The notes beneath the pieces are model-generated. The model did not search any database and was not told the origin of the DNA. It was given only the letters and a program-made list of their open reading frames with translations. The position numbers and the translations under genes were made by a program. DNA of 64,000 nucleotides. Source: an uncultured Actinomycetes bacterium. Lineage in GTDB: Bacteria; Actinomycetota; Acidimicrobiia; IMCC26256; JBBRZM01. Within the stretch, counting starts at the first letter, position 1, and every line of letters begins with the position of its first letter. Shown here one piece after another: positions 3,682 through 59,771 of the stretch. Location: the NCBI GenBank assembly GCA_963813635.1, contig CAWEZO010000008.1:70193-134192 (forward strand), given 5' to 3'.

Positions 3682-4378
3682 TCAGCTGACGTCGTCGCCG
3701 CCGCCTCGCCACGGTGGCGTGCGCGGGTGATCGAAGTCGCACGGCAGTTGCTCGCCGCCGATCGCGGCGAAGGCCGTCTCGAGCCAACGGTCGCCGCCGG
3801 CGAGCGGCCATGGCAACGCGTCGCCGTGCGAAGAAGCCGACTTGGCGCGTCTCGAGCGGGTGGCCGCGGAACTCGCCGCCGAGCATGCGGCAGTGGAATA
3901 CGAGTGAGTAGAGGGCAGCCGCGCGAATCCGAGGCGCAAGCCGTCGAACACCGCGATGAGCGAGAGAGGCTCCACCTCGATCCCCGTCTCTTCGTACACC
4001 TCTTTGACGGCCACCTCCGACGGCGAGTAGCCGACGTCGGCCCAACCGACGGGGTACAGCCACACGCCGGAGTCGGACCGCTGCGTGAGCAGGATCTCGC
4101 CTGCCTCGTTGCCCACGACGGCAGCGACCGCGACCTTCGGCGTCACGTACCCGCCCACGCCCTCGCCAACCGTCGCCAGCCACTCCTCGAACAGGGCGTC
4201 GGACTCGGCCTCTTCGATCGCGCGCGGCACGCATGTCGGCCGCGACGCGCAAGACCTCCTGGAAGCGCTCCTTCTCGTACAGGCTCTCGGTGAAACCGAG
4301 ACCCGTGCGTGCCACGCCCGACAGCGTCTCCGCCCACCGGAGGAGATCGACGGCGGAAACGACATGCGGCTCGGTCAC
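3682..4378 (-). pseudogene. NUDIX hydrolase with Nudix_N_2-type N-terminal domain, at least three frameshifts
   Basis: The protein can only be rebuilt by alternating between ORFs 3617-4492 and 3682-4365. The pieces are LLRWAETLSGVARTGLGFTESLYEKERF, then the Nudix box GWADVGYSPSEVAVKEVYEETGIEV, then YSLVFHCRMLGGEF, then the C-terminal tail. Frame switches fall near 4222, 3915 and 3830. Confidence 0.7.
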
Positions 4379-11750: not shown

Positions 11751-12410
11751 ATGGCCGAGTTCCACGACACGACCGAGGAGTACCTCGAGACGATCCTCGA
11801 GATCGAGGAAGAGGGCATCGTCCCGATCCGGGCGCGGCTCGTCGAGCGACTCGGCCTGTCGGCGCCGGCTGTCTCCGAAACCGTCAACCGGCTCGTGGAG
11901 CACGGCTACGCCGAGCTGCTCGACGACCGCACGCTTCGCCTCACGCCGAAGGGCCGCACGGTTGCGGTCTCGATCGTGCGCAAGCACCGCCTCGCCGAAC
12001 GGCTCCTCACCGACATCATCGGCCTCGAGTGGGAGAAGGTGCACCGCGAAGCCGACCGCTGGGAGCACGCGATCTCGGGCGATGTCGAAGAGAAGCTCGT
12101 CCTGCTGCTGGGTGATCCCGCGACGTGTCCGCATGGCAACCCGATCCCGGGGTCCAAGCAAAAGGTCGACACGACGCACTCGGTCACGCTGTCGAAGGCC
12201 AACCCTGGGGCGGTCACGGTGAAGCGCATCTCGGAGAAGATCGAGCTCGACGATTCCGCGCTTCGCCTACTCGCTGATGCCGCGTTGATTCCCGGATCAC
12301 CTGCTGTGGTCGTCGGTGCGGCCAACGACGGTGTGGTCGTCAAGACCGACGCCGGCGAGCAGACCGTGCCGAGCTACATCGCGGAGCTGATGTTCGTCGC
12401 TCCCGCGTAA
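11751..12410 (+). CDS. DtxR-family metalloregulator, Mn-type (MntR-like) with C-terminal SH3-like domain
   Basis: The sequence follows the DtxR/IdeR layout throughout. The site-2 positions read TEEYL (Glu where IdeR has Met10) and EADRWEH (Asp where IdeR has Cys102), as in Mn-responsive family members. Confidence 0.8.
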   Translation: MAEFHDTTEEYLETILEIEEEGIVPIRARLVERLGLSAPAVSETVNRLVEHGYAELLDDRTLRLTPKGRTVAVSIVRKHRLAERLLTDIIGLEWEKVHREADRWEHAISGDVEEKLVLLLGDPATCPHGNPIPGSKQKVDTTHSVTLSKANPGAVTVKRISEKIELDDSALRLLADAALIPGSPAVVVGAANDGVVVKTDAGEQTVPSYIAELMFVAPA

Positions 12411-12415
12411 ACGAC

Positions 12416-13264
12416 TCAGGCGCCCGCGGCAACCAGCACGAAGTCGGTGCCGAACCCGATGACGATGCCGAGCAACAGGCCCCACATCAGTTGTTCCTTG
12501 TGGCCGAGCTTTGCCCCGACGTTGAGCAGCTGCACGACGACATACAGGATCGAGCCGGCGGCGAGCGCGAGGAACGCCGTGTCGAGGGTCTCGCTGACCC
12601 ACGCCTGACCGACGATGGTCCCGACGAATGTCGGGCCGCCGCCGATGACTCCCATCGTCGCGAGGAACGCCCAAGTCGGACGGTCGGCTTCACCGGAGAG
12701 CGGCGCGCAGATCCCGAAGCCTTCGGTCGCGTTGTGCAGACCGAAGCCGACGATGAGCAGCAACGCGAGCTTGATCTCATTGTTCGCAGCCGACTGGCCG
12801 ATCGCCAGGCCCTCGGAAAAATTGTGGAGCCCGATGCCGAGCGCGATGAACAAGGCGAGTCGTTTCGGGTCGCTCAAACGAGCGATGCTGATGCGGGACA
12901 GCTCTTGTGTCGCGGCCGCACCCGGCCCGAAACGACGCCCTTGCGCCCGCGCTGCGAGCCACCGGTCGTAGTACACGAGGCCGAGGAGCCCGACGCCGAA
13001 CAACACCACGAAGACCACCGTCAGCCACAAGAAGTGCACCCACGACCCGTGGCTGGTCCGGCTCGCAGCGGTGAGTGCCTTCTCGACCGGCTCGATGCCG
13101 TGCTGGAAGACCTCGATGAGCAGGAAGATCAAGACTCCGGTCGCGACAGCGTTGAGGAGGGCCCGGGTCTCGCTGCTGAGATTGCGGAGCCGCCCGATCG
13201 GCAGGCCGAGAAAGATCGTGAACCCGGCGATCGCCCCGAGCAGCACCACGTTGGTTGACGACAT
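12416..13264 (-). CDS. ZIP-family divalent metal transporter (ZupT-like)
   Basis: A polytopic membrane ORF with the ZIP signatures GLHNFSEGLAIG and GLHNATEGFG. Confidence 0.85.
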   Translation of the reverse strand: MSSTNVVLLGAIAGFTIFLGLPIGRLRNLSSETRALLNAVATGVLIFLLIEVFQHGIEPVEKALTAASRTSHGSWVHFLWLTVVFVVLFGVGLLGLVYYDRWLAARAQGRRFGPGAAATQELSRISIARLSDPKRLALFIALGIGLHNFSEGLAIGQSAANNEIKLALLLIVGFGLHNATEGFGICAPLSGEADRPTWAFLATMGVIGGGPTFVGTIVGQAWVSETLDTAFLALAAGSILYVVVQLLNVGAKLGHKEQLMWGLLLGIVIGFGTDFVLVAAGA

Positions 13265-13367
13265 GTGTCGGGCCCCGGGGGTTGACTGTCCGACCGATTA
13301 CTAAGGGCAGCCTAACCAACGAAGGGCCGAGGGTCAACCCGGACCTTCTGCCTTGTTGGGGCCCTGC

Positions 13368-13643
13368 TCAGCCGCCGGCGACGGCCGGCACGATGCTCAC
13401 GGTCTGGCCCTCGGCGACCGCCGTCTCGAGGCCCTGCGCGAAGCGGATGTCCTCGTCGGCCACGAACACGTTCACGAACCGGCGAAGCTCGCCCTTGCCA
13501 TCGAACAGCCGCTCCGCGAAGCCGGGATGCTCGGACTCGAGTTGCTGGAGCACCTGGGCAACGGTGCCGGGGAGGAGCTTCACCTCGGACGCCCCGCCGG
13601 AGAGCTCGCGCAGCTGGGTCGGAATGCGGACGGAGACCGGCAT
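13368..13643 (-). CDS. MoaD/ThiS/CysO-family sulfur-carrier protein ending in Gly-Gly
   Basis: A 91-aa ORF whose C-terminus reads VSIVPAVAGG followed by the stop. It starts 3 nt after the stop of the ThrC-like gene. Confidence 0.75.
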   Translation of the reverse strand: MPVSVRIPTQLRELSGGASEVKLLPGTVAQVLQQLESEHPGFAERLFDGKGELRRFVNVFVADEDIRFAQGLETAVAEGQTVSIVPAVAGG

Positions 13644-13646
13644 CGG

Positions 13647-14892
13647 CTACTGCTCCTGGATCGTGTCGGCGGGAAATGCTTCGTGGAACGCATCGAGCGA
13701 CGGGCCGATGGTGGCGGTCGGCCCGACTTCGGCCGCGACAGCGTCGAGCGTCTTGAGCCCGTGGCCCGTGATGTACGCGACAACACGTTCGTCGGGCGTG
13801 ATGACACCCTGCTCCGCAAGGCGCTTGAGCGAGGCGATCGTGACGCCGCCGGCGGTCTCGGCGAAGATCCCCTCGGTGCGGGCGAGCAGCCGGATTCCTT
13901 CGACGACTTCGTCATCGGTGACCGCAGCGAGCGCGCCGCCGCTCTGGCGGACGGCGTCGAGGGCGAAGTAGCCGTCGGCCGGGTTACCGATCGCGAGCGA
14001 CTTGGCGATCGTGTCCGGCTTCACCGGCTTGATCGTGTCGGAGCGGTTGATCCACGCGGTCGCCACGGGCGAGCAGCCGGTTGCCTGCGCGCCCGACACC
14101 CGCACCTGCGGCTCGGCGTCGAGCAGGCCGACCGTGTGCAGCTCATGGAAGCCCTTGCGGATCTTCGTGAGAAGCGAGCCGCTCGCGACGGGCACGACGA
14201 CGTGATCGGGAGTCTGCCAGTCGAGCTGCTCCGCGGTCTCGAACGCGATGGTCTTCGAGCCTTCCGCGTAGTACGGCCGCACGTTGACGTTGACAAACGC
14301 CCATGGATACGTGCCGGCCAGCTCCGCACACAGCCGGTTGACGTCGTCGTAGTTGCCGTTGATCGCGACCACGTTGCCGCCGTACACGGCAGTGGTGACG
14401 ATCTTGGCCGCTTCGAGGTTGGCGGGTATGAACACGAAGCTGCGCAGCCCCGCGTGGGCAGCGTGCGCGGCCACAGAGTTGGCGAGATTGCCCGTCGACG
14501 CGCGACGCAGCGGTCTTGAAGCCGAACTCGAGCGCCTTCGACAACGCGACCGACGCGACGCGGTCTTTGAACGAGTTCGTGGGATTGAGAGTGTCGTTCT
14601 TGATCCACAGCTCGCCGAGCCCGATCGCGTTCGCGAGCCGATCGGCGCGCACGAGCGGTGTGCAACCCGCGCCGAGGTCGACGGCGTTGCCACGGTCGAC
14701 CGGCAGGAGATCGGCGTAGCGCCAGATCGTGCGCGGCCCGGCCGCGATCTTCTCGCGACTCATCGCCTTGGTGATCGCGTCGTAGTCGTAGGCGACCTCG
14801 AGCGGCCCGAAGCACCAGTCGCAGGTGTAGATCGGCGCGACCTCGTACTCGCGTCCGCATTCCCGACATCGCAGCCCTTGCACGTGCGCCAT
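13647..14892 (-). CDS. threonine-synthase-like PLP enzyme with N-terminal zinc ribbon, single-base frameshift near 14503
   Basis: ORFs 14143-14892 and 13647-14693 join at FKTAA / CASTGNLANSVAAH once one C is removed. The PLP-lysine motif NSFKDR is present. The N-terminus carries CRECGREY...CDWCFGP. Confidence 0.85.
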
Positions 14893-14984
14893 GGCGCGGT
14901 CTCCTCGCTCCGGGGGACCGGACGTGTGCCCGATCCCGTGCCTCGACGCGCCCTCGAGCGCCCCGAGCGGAAACCGCTGCGGAG

Positions 14985-15090
14985 GCTGCTCATCGTTCAG
15001 GCATTAGCACCTGGCCCAACCGGTTTCCCGGTGGAGCTGGTTGCCGCGGCGTCGTCGGGCCTGTCCCTCGGCCGCTCTTGATGAGCGCGT
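14985..15090 (-). promoter_or_regulatory. SAM-I-superfamily riboswitch aptamer (5' leader of the ThrC-like gene)
   Basis: The minus strand reads CUCAUCAAGAGCGGCCGAGGGACAGGCCCGACGACGCCGCGGCAACC...GGUGCUAAUGCCUGAACGAUGAG. The P1 strands sit at 15080-15085 and 14989-14994. An anti-SD-like CCUCC follows P1, and the SD GGAGCGAGGAG lies before the AUG at 14892. Confidence 0.85.
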
Positions 15091-15149
15091 GTATTTGGTA
15101 GAAACGGTAGCACTCCGGTTCCGCCCGTCTCGACCCATACAGTGCCGGT

Positions 15150-16076
15150 GTGCGCCTCGTCGATCCGCCCGCCGAGCATCCGGATCCCGGGCTGCTGGCA
15201 GCGCAGAAGCGCGAGCAGGGCCTCGGCATCTCGGTATGCCTGCCGGCCCGTAACGAGGAGGCGACGGTCGGCCACATCGTCGCGACGGTGCGCCGAAACC
15301 TGATGGAGCGGGTCGACGTCGTCGATGAGGTGGTCGTGCTCGACGACGGCTCGACCGATGCCACAGCCGAGGCGGCCCGCTGGGAAGGCGCTCGCGTGCT
15401 CGCGGTCGACGACGTGCTCCCCGATGCGGAGGCCGGCACGGGCAAGGGCAACGCCATGTGGAAGTCGCTGTACGCGTGCGACGGCGACATCGTGTGCTGG
15501 GTCGACGCCGACATCCGCAACTTCGGCGCGCACTTTGTCACCGCGCTGCTCGCGCCGCTCCTGCACCGGCCACAGGTTGCGTTCGTGAAGGGCTTCTATC
15601 GACGGCCATTGCACGGTGAGCCGTCAGGTGGCGGACGTGTGACCGAGCTGATGGCGCGGCCGGCACTGTCGCTCCTCTTCCCGTCGCTCACACCGTTCGT
15701 CCAGCCGCTCTCGGGTGAGTATGCGGGGCGCCGCAGGCTCCTCGAGACGTTGCCGTTCGTCGAAGGGTGGGGCGTCGACATCGGTTTGCTCGTCGACGTC
15801 GTCGCACGCGGCGGGATCGAGCGTGTTACACAGGCCGATCTCGGTGTTCGTGAGCACCGCAACCGCGGGCTCGACGAGCTCGGCGCGCCCGTGCTCGCGA
15901 TTCTCGCGACGGTCCTGCGGCGCGCCGGTTTCACGACCGCGGCGATCGAAGCGACGCTCGTGCGCTTCGACGACACGCTTGGCGAGCAACGGGTGCCCGT
16001 CGAGCTTCGCGAGCGGCCGCCGATGATCACCGTGCCCGAGTACCGCGCCAAGTTCGGACGCGAGCTCTCGGCGTAG
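15150..16076 (+). CDS. gpgS: glucosyl-3-phosphoglycerate synthase (GT81)
   Basis: The sequence follows the GpgS layout throughout, including ISVCLPARNEEATVG, VLDDGSTD, GKGNAMW, VDADI and GGRVTEL. Confidence 0.8.
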   Translation: MRLVDPPAEHPDPGLLAAQKREQGLGISVCLPARNEEATVGHIVATVRRNLMERVDVVDEVVVLDDGSTDATAEAARWEGARVLAVDDVLPDAEAGTGKGNAMWKSLYACDGDIVCWVDADIRNFGAHFVTALLAPLLHRPQVAFVKGFYRRPLHGEPSGGGRVTELMARPALSLLFPSLTPFVQPLSGEYAGRRRLLETLPFVEGWGVDIGLLVDVVARGGIERVTQADLGVREHRNRGLDELGAPVLAILATVLRRAGFTTAAIEATLVRFDDTLGEQRVPVELRERPPMITVPEYRAKFGRELSA

Positions 16077-21655: not shown

Positions 21656-21728
21656 AGCCGGGTGTCGGATTCGAACCGACGACATCTTCTTTACAAGAGA
21701 AGTGCTCTGCCAACTGAGCTAACCCGGC
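21656..21728 (-). tRNA. tRNA-Thr (anticodon UGU)
   Basis: A full cloverleaf can be drawn: acceptor GCCGGGT/ACCCGGC, D arm GCTC-AGTTGGCA-GAGC, anticodon arm CTTCT-CTTGTAA-AGAAG, and T arm GTCGG-TTCGAAT-CCGAC. Confidence 0.95.
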
Positions 21729-33773: not shown

Positions 33774-34755
33774 ATGAAGGTTGCCGAGACGCTCCAATTG
33801 ACGCCCCTGCCCGGCGACCTGGCGCGGGTCGAAACTGCGCTCCGTGACGCTGTTCGCCACCAGCACGACCCGTTCCTGGGTGAGGTGGCCGGCCATCTCA
33901 TCGAGGCCGGGGGCAAGCGGATCCGGCCGACGCTGACCCTCTGCGCGGCGTACGCGTCGATGAACGGCGATCACAAGGTGCATGTGGACGCGATCACCGG
34001 CGCCGCGGCCGTCGAGCTCGTGCACCTCGGCTCCCTGTACCACGACGACGTGATCGACGAGGCGGAAGTCCGCAGGGGTGTGCCGAGCGTCAACGCCCGG
34101 TGGAGCAACATCGTCGCGATCCTCGCCGGTGATTATCTCCTCGCACGCGGTGTCGTCCCTGGCCGCATCACTCGGGGCCGAGTGTGCTTCGCTGCTGGCA
34201 ATGACGATCGGCGAGCTGTGCCGCGGCCAGGTGCTCGAGTTGCAGCACCTCTTCGACGTCGACCGTTCCGTCGACGACTACTTCTCCGCGATCGAAGGCA
34301 AGACCGCCTCGCTGTTCGCGACATCGTGCCGTGTCGGCGGAATGGTGTGCGCGGTGCCCGAGCCCACACTCGACGCGCTCACCGACTTCGGCCGCCACCT
34401 GGGCATGTGCTTCCAGATCGTCGACGACGTGCTCGACCTCACGGCCACCGACGACGAGCTCGGAAAGCCGTCGGGCCAGGATCTCGTCGAGGGTGTGTAC
34501 ACGCTCCCGGTCATTCACGCGCTCACCGAATCGGGCGAGTTGCGCGAGCAACTCGGCCGGCCGCTCGACTCTGATCGACTCGCCGCCGTACGCGCCCTGG
34601 CGACGGCAACCGGCGGCGTGCCTGCTGCGCTCGGTGTGGCGCGAGACCACGCCGCCAAGGCCGGCGAGGCGCTCAGCGGAGCCGAGGCATTGGCGCCTGA
34701 GGTGGTCGACGGCCTGCGCCGTCTCGTCGACGGACTCGTCACCCGCAACGCGTAA
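33774..34755 (+). CDS. trans-polyprenyl diphosphate synthase, single-base frameshift near 34149
   Basis: The first DDxxD motif is LYHDDVIDEA and the second is QIVDDVLD. ORF 33405-34574 (GDYLLAR) joins ORF 34078-34755 (VSSLAASLG) once one G is removed. Confidence 0.85.
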
Positions 34756-50757: not shown

Positions 50758-51856
50758 TTACCGAGCGCTCCCGGTAGCTGCGGCGGGCATGCCGACGCGG
50801 GACAGCCACGCTGCCGGCTGGGCGAGCTCGGTCATCGTGGGAAGCGACTCAGGGCCGCGCCACGCTGCGTCGACGGCGTGCGGCCCGGCTTCGCGCTCGA
50901 TCGCGGCAATGAACGCCTCGCCGACCTCGTACTGACGCATCTTCGACTCGAGGCCGAGCAGCTTGTGCAACAGCCCGGTGATGCCCCGCGCCTGCCGTCG
51001 TGCGCTGAGGACGCGCGCCATGCGCTCCTGACCGCGGACGTGCTCGCGCCCGAGCTCGTTCATCACACGATTGCCATGGCCTTCGAGCAACGACATGAGC
51101 GCCTGAACCTGCGACAGCACGCCACGCTGCTCCGGCGACGCGAGCAAGGCGACCAGACCACCTTCGTCGAGCGGGTTACGGCCATTACGCATCTCGTCGA
51201 CCACGCGGCATCAGCGCCTGGAGCACGCGCCTGGGATCAGGATCGACAATAGTGAGCGCTTGGTCGACGAGAGACAGGAAGTAGCCCTTCATCCAGGGCA
51301 CGCCTGTGAACTGCGCCCTGTGCGTGACCTCGTGGATCGCGATCCAACGGCGGAACTCACGCGGCGGGAACGCGAAGCGCTTCTCGAGCTCGAGCACGTT
51401 GGCGCCGACGTAATAGACCGCGTCGGCGTTGAGCGTGCCTGTGCCGTCGGTGGGTACGAGGAGGTCGTACTGGCCGAGCACGCGTTGCGACAGGTAGCCG
51501 AGCAGCACGCCCATCTCGGTGCCGGCGACCGCGCGCCCCACGCCTGCGACCGGACTGCGCCCCATGCGTTCGCCCATACGGCGGGTCAGCGGCGCGAGCA
51601 TCCGTCGCATCGAGGCCACGTTGGCCTCGACCCAGCCGGCCCGATCCAGCACCGCGGCCGTTGCTGCACTCGGCGAGCGCAAGCCGGTGAAATCAGCGAC
51701 GAGTGCTTCGGCTTCAACGGTGACCGCATGGAAGTCGGGTTGCAACGACTCGCCGAGGTAGGAGTTTGCGAGCGGGGCGCGTCCGGAGAAACGGCGAGCG
51801 ACGCGTTCGGCCAGCGCCCAGTCGACCGGTTCCTGTGCGGGGCCGGTGTCGGTCAT
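50758..51856 (-). CDS. zinc-dependent metalloprotease, DUF2342 family (Rv3626c-type), single-base frameshift near 51202
   Basis: The HExxH-like motif AIHEVTHRAQF lies in ORF 51185-51973. The C-terminal half (VVDEMRNGRNPLDEGGL...) lies in ORF 50758-51204. The gene sits next to tilS and hpt, as in mycobacteria. Confidence 0.7.
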
Positions 51857-59698: not shown

Positions 59699-59771
59699 AG
59701 CCGGGGAGGGGATTCGAACCCCTGACCTGCTCATTACGAGTGAGCTGCTCTACCGACTGAGCTACCCCGGC
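59699..59771 (-). tRNA. tRNA-Thr (anticodon CGU)
   Basis: A cloverleaf can be drawn: acceptor GCCGGGG/CCCCGGC, D arm GCTC-AGTCGGTA-GAGC, anticodon arm GCTCA-CTCGTAA-TGAGC, and T arm AGGGG-TTCGAAT-CCCCT. Confidence 0.95.

Follow-up and report, generated by a model that had tools for sequence, protein, structure and literature searches.

The DNA analysed here, a stretch of 64,000 nucleotides (nt) that we call the window, comes from an uncultured bacterium of the Acidimicrobiia (contig CAWEZO010000008.1 of assembly GCA_963813635.1). It carries an S-adenosylmethionine (SAM) riboswitch of the SAM-I family ahead of two genes, one for an enzyme resembling threonine synthase (ThrC) and one for a small sulfur carrier. 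All riboswitch and operon features lie on the minus strand, and coordinates are window positions. As set out below, we think it probable that this riboswitch, whose aptamer has no P4 helix, controls a metM-metO operon through the expression platform proposed here, and that the MetM/MetO pair would make homocysteine from O-phosphohomoserine by way of a MetO thiocarboxylate. The aptamer and the two genes are laid out as follows.

14987-15087, minus: SAM-I aptamer without P4 (RF00162 match, covariation on 74 sequences, minimum free energy (MFE) z-score)
15080-15086, minus: 5' strand of P1, GCUCAUC (Rfam alignment, covariation)
15046-15075, minus: P2, made up of P2a (GCGGC/GCCGC), a kink-turn (K-turn; CGA opposite GACGAC) and P2b (GGG/CCC)
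15060-15063, minus: 5' strand of the pseudoknot PK-1, CAGG, in the P2 loop
15006-15045, minus: P3, GGCAACC...GGUGCU, an extended stem capped by a GAAA tetraloop
14995-15005, minus: junction J3/4 (AAUG), 3' strand of PK-1 (CCUG, 14998-15001) and linker AAC, at the usual site of P4
14988-14994, minus: 3' strand of P1, GAUGAGC (Rfam alignment, covariation)
13647-14892, minus: metM-like gene of 1246 nt, a zinc-ribbon ThrC paralogue with the pyridoxal phosphate (PLP) lysine in SFKDR
13368-13643, minus: metO-like sulfur-carrier gene, 91 residues ending in ...PAVAGG, ThiS/MoaD fold

The sole riboswitch match of Rfam in the 64 kb is to RF00162 (SAM-I) at 14987-15087, and it passes the gathering threshold of that family (70 bits against 44.4 bits; E = 2.7e-14). 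An earlier reading made from the letters alone (the sequence-only reading) had placed a SAM-I core in this minus-strand leader, and the covariance model bears it out as a member of the SAM-I clan. A further run, on 261 nt, was made in E-value mode, in which overlapping matches of one clan are suppressed, and it showed RF00162. The alignment reaches the full ends of the model, with every position of the P4 hairpin deleted. P1, the AAGAG junction (J1/2, AAGA(G)), the K-turn signature, GGCAACC and GGUGCUAA all lie where they had been read by eye, and the stretch from GGUGCUAA to the 3' strand of P1, noted as about 9 nt and too short for P4, is exactly 9 nt long (UGCCUGAAC). Within these nine nucleotides CCUG is the 3' strand of PK-1, and AAC alone occupies the place of P4. 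Folded by itself, the aptamer reaches -46.9 kcal/mol, lower than all 200 shuffled sequences that served as the fold-energy background (z = -3.16). Judged by its alignment and its letters, the window aptamer is a SAM-I aptamer with P4 deleted and no replacement element.

We collected relatives of the locus by scanning species-representative genomes with the repaired MetM-like protein (the repair is described below). This gave 80 loci with protein identities of 63-86%, almost all of them in metagenome-assembled genomes of Acidimicrobiia. A P4-less aptamer lies directly upstream of the gene pair in 75 of the 80, corresponding to 73 distinct sequences. In L007 and L040 the contig ends inside the aptamer and the P4-less 3' part is retained, one locus (L070) has a normal P4, and two loci, both from Nitrospirae, are without a riboswitch. 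GGUGCYAA and GAUGAG are 8-11 nt apart in every one of the 73 distinct P4-less relatives, and each of the 15 P4-less relatives scanned with Rfam was called RF00162 (52.8-80.2 bits).

We aligned 74 distinct P4-less aptamers, and 93.0% of cells in this alignment pair as the SAM-I structure with its pseudoknot requires. Changes on both sides occur in 11 pairs, and the observed covariation score was reached by none of 500 shuffles; when the partners were slid by one to three columns, pairing fell to 32-45%. The four pairs of PK-1 are 100% paired, and one of them, at columns 28/138 (GC in 44 sequences, AU in 29, CG in 1), is the most informative pair of the alignment. Compensatory changes are seen in both P2a, where G-C changes to A-U, and P3, and RNAalifold independently recovered P1, P2a and P2b. 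The GA dinucleotides of the K-turn (columns 20-21 and 36-37) are invariant in the 74 sequences, a result that concerns the sequence signature of the turn. The apical part of P3, by comparison, ranges from 13 to 74 nt across relatives, with unconserved loops of 4-6 nt that are often stable tetraloops. With its core nucleotides invariant in this alignment, the window aptamer is a candidate for selective SAM binding, which would be expected of it.

SAM-I riboswitches without P4 are already documented in Actinomycetota as variation within the family. In the RF00162 family alignment, P4 deletion makes up the first principal component, 'a group of Actinomycetota' is described in which P4 of SAM-I is very short or absent, and designed P4-less SAM-I aptamers respond to SAM in probing by selective 2'-hydroxyl acylation analysed by primer extension (all in PMC12714719). 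Two orthologous leaders that contain P4 provide a comparison: the leader of L070, from a low-GC member of the Acidimicrobiia, has a canonical P4 (CUCGUGUGAUAUCACGAG) and an intrinsic terminator with a U-tract (2587-2750), and that of Nonomuraea gerenzanensis has a P4 of 8 bp with the Shine-Dalgarno (SD) sequence adjoining P1. Because these leaders belong to the same orthologous unit of riboswitch and operon, the loss of P4 is a lineage-specific deletion within that unit. For metM-metO across the Acidimicrobiia, then, P4 loss is by comparison of sequences the rule and comes without a substitute element, which is modestly new.

The shared core (AUC-AGAG, GAGGGA, GGCAACC and GGUGCYAA, with P1, P2 and its K-turn, P3 and PK-1) ties the window aptamer to canonical SAM-I, as does its presumed control of a methionine-pathway operon. 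It departs from the usual form, which has P4, in that 3-5 nt connect the PK-1 strand to P1.

The two genes downstream match a described pathway in kind and order. For Streptomyces albulus (Hasebe et al. 2024, AEM 90:e01247-24), the literature describes a thiocarboxylate route from O-phosphohomoserine to homocysteine that comprises the carrier MetO, the ThrC homologue MetM, the E1-like MoeZ and the hydrolase Mec, with a SAM riboswitch upstream of metM. The sequence-only reading had pointed to this MetM/MetO pair for the present locus, and the literature does describe it as a SAM-riboswitch-controlled homocysteine route in Streptomyces. The window shares with S. albulus the order of riboswitch, ThrC-homologous PLP enzyme and small GG-ended carrier, an order also seen in Nonomuraea and, by annotation, in S. 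lividans, where RF00162 stands ahead of a two-gene 'threonine biosynthesis' operon. It differs in its uncultured acidimicrobial host, its riboswitch without P4, the absence of MoeZ and Mec genes nearby and a frameshifted enzyme gene, and the likeness is one of architecture and regulation.

The carrier itself was correctly recognised from the letters as a 91-residue protein of the MoaD/ThiS fold ending in GG: its open reading frame (ORF) spans 13368-13643 and its product matches PF02597 (56.7 bits), while the NCBIfam model SAMP1 scores 59.1 bits, near its cut-off of 60. The stop codon of the enzyme gene (TAG, 13647-13649) and the ATG of the carrier gene, which comes next, are 3 nt apart, as had been read. 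In 80 of 81 loci the carrier gene comes directly after the enzyme gene (gene-content counts here and below cover 81 loci or homologues), the exception being at a contig end, and most carriers end exactly in GG.

The enzyme scores 248 bits against PALP. Its CxxC...CxxC motif with four cysteines is present in 81/81 homologues and the SFKDR-type lysine motif in 80/81. Its best solved relatives are authentic threonine synthases (E values of 1e-64 to 1e-55), with which it has the fold and the PLP lysine motif in common; for canonical ThrC (PDB 2ZSJ, 1UIM and 2D1F) the alignment runs over residues 53-400 (E = 1e-64). As the PDB matches begin at about residue 53, the zinc ribbon is an N-terminal addition of about 50 residues. 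Identity to an actinobacterial thrB-linked ThrC is about 36%, and the window type is further set apart by its 50-residue zinc ribbon and by being linked to a carrier gene, not to hom or thrB.

For comparison of paralogues we used Nonomuraea gerenzanensis as a surrogate complete genome (L082, L083). One of its loci has the order RF00162, zinc-ribbon ThrC-like gene, gene for a 91-residue carrier ending in ...AVAGG, and groEL. The riboswitch-linked paralogue from this locus and the window protein share 56% identity over 403 residues, whereas a 352-residue ThrC, whose gene is immediately followed by that of homoserine kinase (thrB), is 36% identical to the window protein; the two Nonomuraea paralogues are 33% identical to each other. 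The sequence-only reading would have been undone by an enzyme that branches within true threonine synthases and is the sole thrC product of its genome, and in the surrogate genome the answer went the other way: by these identities the window enzyme belongs with the riboswitch- and carrier-linked paralogue and not with the housekeeping ThrC. The PLSDB record used (NZ_LT559118.1, the source of L082 and L083) is labelled 'plasmid I', yet it measures 11.85 Mb and holds the housekeeping thrC-thrB genes and groEL. It is evidently the N. gerenzanensis chromosome, and its annotation is almost nil (10 features).

The locus thus unites a ThrC-fold PLP enzyme that keeps its lysine, an adjacent GG-ended carrier and an upstream SAM riboswitch; an intact coding sequence, which a MetM/MetO system should also have, is lacking in the window. 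The marks of a canonical ThrC, namely linkage to hom or thrB, a length of about 350 residues and no zinc ribbon, are not those of the window gene. In the proposed pathway, MetM, with its ThrC-type PLP fold and N-terminal zinc ribbon, would convert O-phosphohomoserine to homocysteine with the thiocarboxylate of MetO. A comparable division of labour is known from CysO-CysM of Mycobacterium tuberculosis and other thiocarboxylate-dependent amino-acid synthases, in which a GG-ended carrier of the ThiS/MoaD fold gives thiocarboxylate sulfur to a fold-type II PLP enzyme whose substrate is an O-phospho amino acid. CysM is of the CysK/CysM type and turns O-phosphoserine into cysteine, whereas the window enzyme is of the ThrC type and control by SAM suggests homocysteine as its product.

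The window yielded neither an E1-like nor a JAMM gene, as the sequence-only reading had stated: the Pfam table of a near-identical contig (10 kb to either side) and, for the remainder, a gene survey and a motif scan agree. The scan for the ThiF motif GxGGxG and the JAMM motif HxH...SxxD returned two out-of-frame, arginine-rich chance matches. An activating enzyme of the MoeZ type would therefore have to be encoded elsewhere than in the window. Since MetO of the window already ends in GG, processing by a JAMM protease would not be needed. About 15 MetO homologues extend 1-3 residues past GG (A, T, Q, C, CEG, EGP, LA and others); the loci concerned are L004, L005, L008, L010, L012, L015, L017, L022, L034, L046, L049, L062, L063, L070, L078 and L080. 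Extended homologues would need a protease of the Mec/JAMM type.

The metM-like gene is not an intact ORF in the window. Its 1246 nt, from the ATG at 14892 to the TAG at 13647-13649, amount to 414 codons, a stop codon and one extra base, and its N-terminal part (from 14892) and C-terminal part (to 13647) stand in different frames. The frame that opens at 14892 is ThrC-like through ...FGFKTAA and then gives out-of-frame residues, while ASTGNLANS... continues in another frame.

14503-14505, minus: +1 frameshift, an extra C in GCUGCGUCGCGCGUCG (expected GCUGCGUGCGCGUCG, encoding A-A-C-A-S)

Removing one base restores a 414-residue protein, which is the repaired protein used above. The SFKDR lysine and the CxxC...CxxC motif reported from the letters are thus present, but that the gene carrying them is broken by an extra C at about 14504 had been overlooked. 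A 260-kb contig from the JGI (Ga0673031_0000023; L081) has the same gene order and encodes an intact protein of 414 residues that is 99% identical. Its DNA is 98% identical over 13300-15200, without one C at about 14504, and its aptamer is 100% identical. A programmed frameshift in metM was considered and rejected, given this 98%-identical strain without the extra base.

Over 18 kb compared with L081, most other indels are concentrated between genes. A NUDIX hydrolase gene contains isolated single-base indels (3824, 3913 and 4224), and several window ORFs, among them 222-1919, 34054-34755 and 50758-51210, have ends that look out of frame or fall far short of the expected length. Sporadic indel errors are probably present in the window. 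The isolated indels in the NUDIX gene and the truncated-looking ORFs favour an assembly error for metM as well, and we regard such an error as more likely than a real pseudogene. The window also has two minus-strand tRNA genes (21656-21728 and 59699-59771; 71.6 and 74.5 bits), and beside the first of them are small indels relative to L081 (21609-21648).

The leader between the candidate promoter and the start codon of the metM-like gene holds the following elements in addition to the aptamer.

15104-15109, minus: candidate -10 element TACCGT (TANNNT type); transcription would start a few nt before the aptamer
15083-15090, minus: switch strand 'a', ACGCGCUC, made up of 3 nt of 5' flank and the 5' half of P1; complementary to 14946-14953
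14966-14978, minus: hairpin A, AGCGG-UUU-CCGCU, which with its flanks (GCGGUUUCCGCUC) is complementary to the SD region; candidate anti-SD element
14942-14967, minus: hairpin B, CUCGG-G-GCGCU-CGAG-GGCGC-G-UCGAG
14946-14953, minus: element c', GGGCGCGU, in the 3' strand of hairpin B; partner of strand 'a'
14914-14937, minus: hairpin C, variable in sequence among relatives
14901-14911, minus: SD region GGAGCGAGGAG, separated by 8 nt from the ATG at 14892

Relatives likewise have a TANNNT hexamer (TAATGT, TAACGT, TACCTT, TAACTT or TAATCT) about 13-17 nt upstream of ACGCGCUC. A scan of 13200-15300 with the sigma-70 consensus and for terminators found neither a promoter nor a terminator on the minus strand.

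The orthologous unit occurs with three expression platforms. The intrinsic terminator of L070 is one of them. In the second, found in 37 Acidimicrobiales loci and in Nonomuraea, the SD sequence follows directly on the 3' strand of P1 (GAUGAGGAGG), in line with the SD next to P1, and direct SD masking, described as common for actinobacterial SAM-I. The third is a long leader of 64-138 nt, which the window has in common with its 36 closest relatives (37 sequences in all). Long leaders run from P1 through hairpin A (base GAGCGG/CCGCUC), hairpin B (CUCGA-G-GCGCU-CGAG-AGCGC-G-UCGAG) and the variable hairpin C to the SD.

Within this third class, the 3' strand of hairpin B contains GAGCGCGU (in the window GGGCGCGU), which is ACGCGCUC in reverse complement. 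The eight pairs between them hold in 97% of cells across the 37 long-leader sequences; at the pair that borders P1 on the outside, L022, L028 and L035 have U-A in place of C-G, with one mismatch. Conservation of the three bases upstream of P1 is confined to loci with the downstream element, and within hairpin B the G of this bordering pair sits in a G.G mismatch instead. This complementarity and its conservation suggest that ACGCGCUC and GAGCGCGU form an alternative helix that competes with P1, which would be modestly new: the usual SAM-I platform takes the 3' strand of P1, whereas the long-leader platform appears to take its 5' strand.

Folding predictions lend this helix some support. When it was enforced in place of P1, the predicted openness of the translation-initiation region rose in 23 of the 37 leaders and fell in 7, a trend that is modest and phylogenetically non-independent; in the window it rose from 0.30 to 0.54. 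The two states are predicted to lie within a few kcal/mol of each other. In the window MFE structure with P1 enforced, GCGGUUUCCGCUC, the hairpin-A segment, is base-paired to GGAGCGAGGAGACCGC of the SD region (14896-14911), an arrangement that encloses hairpins B and C. A pairing of GCGGUUUCCGCUC with GGAGCGAGGAGACCGC would be knotted with the long-range helix, and it is on this that the following two-state logic is built.

Without SAM, ACGCGCUC (15083-15090) in long leaders would pair with GGGCGCGU (14946-14953) and exclude P1. The long-range helix would topologically disfavour pairing of GCGGUUUCCGCUC with the SD region, so that hairpin A could form and the ribosome site would be open. With SAM, P1 and PK-1 would be stabilised and P1 would hold its 5' strand, leaving GGGCGCGU to refold into hairpin B and the hairpin-A segment free to pair with GGAGCGAGGAGACCGC; the SD would be masked and expression presumably turned off. 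The sequence-only reading had proposed a simpler route, in which a CCUCC just after P1 pairs with the SD. Such a CCUCC is present at 14981-14985 and the SD lies at 14901-14911, but the arrangement is specific to the window, the CUCC of relatives falling within hairpin A, in its loop and 3' strand.

Leaders of L002, L004, L006, L008 and L009 repeat the 3' strand of P1: GAUGAGCG recurs about 10 nt downstream, where it overlaps the 5' strand of hairpin A (for example L002, 3895-3925). The Rfam match of L002 extends 10 nt further and has the highest score (80.2 bits). In leaders with this duplication either copy may serve in P1, and P1 would then be coupled directly to the opening of hairpin A.

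That the aptamer is instead SAM-IV, SAM-I/IV or a hybrid, with the post-P1 hairpin as an external helix (P5 or P4) and a pseudoknot PK-2 to the P3 loop in place of the internal P4, is a proposition we find barely credible. The sequence-only reading had seen here a mixture of SAM-I with SAM-IV or SAM-I/IV features, and the families RF00634 and RF01725 do share with the window the SAM-binding core of clan CL00012 and the lack of an internal P4. As characterised in the literature, SAM-IV has no P4, a P5 hairpin 3' of P1, a PK-2 that joins the P3 loop to the 3' tail and a 4-nt turn in place of a K-turn, while SAM-I/IV is without the P2 internal loop and PK-1 and has a PK-2 subdomain. A hairpin does follow P1 in the window and its 36 closest relatives, and the window, alone among them, has a P3 apex (GGAAACC) that could pair with GGUUUCC of hairpin A. 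The best match within the clan is nonetheless RF00162, the K-turn signature is present, PK-1 is present and covaries, and the P3 apex is as variable in length and loop sequence as described above. The external helix and PK-2 that replace P4 in SAM-IV and SAM-I/IV are conserved neither in the window nor in its relatives, and the SAM-I/IV features of a P2 without internal loop, a missing PK-1 and a PK-2 are likewise not those of this aptamer. A search for PK-2 between P3 loops and the downstream leader stayed at chance level in 35 of 37 sequences (the exceptions being the window and L006), and in 37 relatives the start codon follows P1 by 7-28 nt, which leaves no room for an external helix. The mixture is therefore not upheld; the hairpin AGCGG-UUU-CCGCU noted after P1 exists (14966-14978), but a role as stand-in for P4 or as a SAM-IV trait is unsupported. 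The 7-nt complementarity between the P3 apex (15020-15033) and hairpin A, unconserved in relatives, is a level reached by 1% of shuffles. The gene pair raises a different doubt, namely that the enzyme is a true threonine synthase, that SAM control partitions O-phosphohomoserine between threonine and methionine, and that the GG-ended protein is unrelated. Annotation favours this: NCBIfam threonine synthase equivalogs score above their cut-offs, authentic ThrC enzymes are the best PDB relatives, and all sources label the homologues threonine synthase. We hold it to be very unlikely all the same, given the near-constant adjacency of the carrier gene, an N-terminal zinc ribbon absent from solved ThrCs, the thrB-linked ThrC of Nonomuraea being a different paralogue, and the comment in GapMind that MetM is 'often misannotated' as threonine synthase. 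The SAM-I riboswitch ahead of metM-metO remains the reading we prefer. Repression of threonine synthesis at high SAM would also be the opposite of the logic found in plants.

How that riboswitch acts, and whether it still does so in this organism, are matters on which the alternatives carry more weight. Control could be transcriptional, with SAM-stabilised P1 allowing hairpin B to act as a terminator without a U-tract or exposing a Rho site, and ACGCGCUC/GAGCGCGU serving as the antiterminator. Hairpin B is indeed strong, highly conserved and GC-rich and lies about 45 nt upstream of the SD, the real SD of the L002-type subgroup is predicted to be open in both states, and the L070 copy of the operon has a canonical intrinsic terminator. 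Hairpin B is not followed by a U-tract, however, and the minus-strand terminator scan was empty; the SD region of the window and of many relatives has extensive complementarity to the hairpin-A segment, and SAM-I is reported to mask the SD directly in many Actinobacteria. We therefore rate transcriptional control as rather doubtful, although a serious competitor to the translational scheme. The other alternative is that the locus is a decaying pseudogene with a real frameshift, its riboswitch a relic no longer under selection. The 1-nt insertion does split metM, and each frame runs into stops, but the aptamer is 100% identical to that of the 98%-identical strain with an intact gene, metO is intact, and the single-base indels at 3824, 3913 and 4224 together with the truncated-looking ORFs are typical of sporadic assembly errors. 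We consider decay unlikely. Other observations tell against a SAM-controlled metM-metO operon as proposed here. In the SAM-I aptamers studied, SAM affinity drops as P4 shortens (Heppell 2011, as cited in PMC12714719). The assignment as MetM rests on gene context and a surrogate genome, and the threonine synthase model TIGR00260 of NCBIfam scores 298.6 bits against a cut-off of 167. Folding with P1 enforced or penalised gave no consistent difference in SD accessibility across loci, and openness shifts the wrong way in L004, L006, L009 and L010, a subgroup marked by the extra GAUGAGCG and a longer Rfam match. Hairpins A and B are nearly invariant, so covariation cannot separate the competing pairings, and the alternative helix is supported by one compensatory pair. 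With metM frameshifted in the window, the operon may moreover be non-functional in this organism.

The surroundings of the operon are conserved in part. Conserved neighbours across the loci are groEL, ideR, a ZIP transporter gene and a chlorite-dismutase-like gene; those of metM in the window are gpgS, ZIP, ideR and groEL. Clustering of neighbouring ORFs in the 81 loci yielded no E1, JAMM, hom or thrB gene, and many clusters consisted of spurious antisense ORFs typical of high-GC DNA. In Nonomuraea (L082, 2816-6902) and in about 50 Acidimicrobiia loci, metM-metO is closely followed by a groEL paralogue, a synteny that spans two actinobacterial classes for no obvious functional reason; in the window ZIP and ideR are inserted between metM-metO and groEL. 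Between metO and the ZIP gene (12416-13264), UUGGUUAGGCUGCCCUUAG at 13301-13319 on the minus strand resembles a DtxR/IdeR-type operator, judged against what we take to be the consensus, TTAGGTTAGGCTAACCTAA. A gene for a DtxR-family regulator (11751-12410, plus strand) adjoins the ZIP gene.

Both a P4-less SAM-I switch and a metM-metO operon have been described before, and none of these findings overturns current understanding. Modestly new are the Acidimicrobiia-wide loss of P4, the P4-containing orthologues for comparison and the candidate helix that would capture the 5' strand of P1. Going further, we tentatively picture the Acidimicrobiia form as a natural minimal SAM-I aptamer, with three helices and PK-1 but no P4, PK-2 or peripheral substitute, that would be fully functional in vivo and in one subclade part of a three-state translational switch in which the distal GAGCGCGU captures the 5' rather than the 3' strand of P1; this picture is plausible, but we would not yet lean on it. 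The 74 distinct natural P4-less SAM-I sequences, with L070 and Nonomuraea as P4-bearing orthologues, amount to a natural experiment on the role of P4 in SAM affinity and switching, and the complementarity of ACGCGCUC and GAGCGCGU offers a testable design for a riboswitch acting through the 5' strand of P1. For the organisms, our reading would extend the thiocarboxylate route to homocysteine through MetM/MetO to the whole class Acidimicrobiia. Because the genes are uniformly annotated 'threonine synthase' there, reconstructions of the methionine pathway would show a false gap in these abundant soil and water bacteria.

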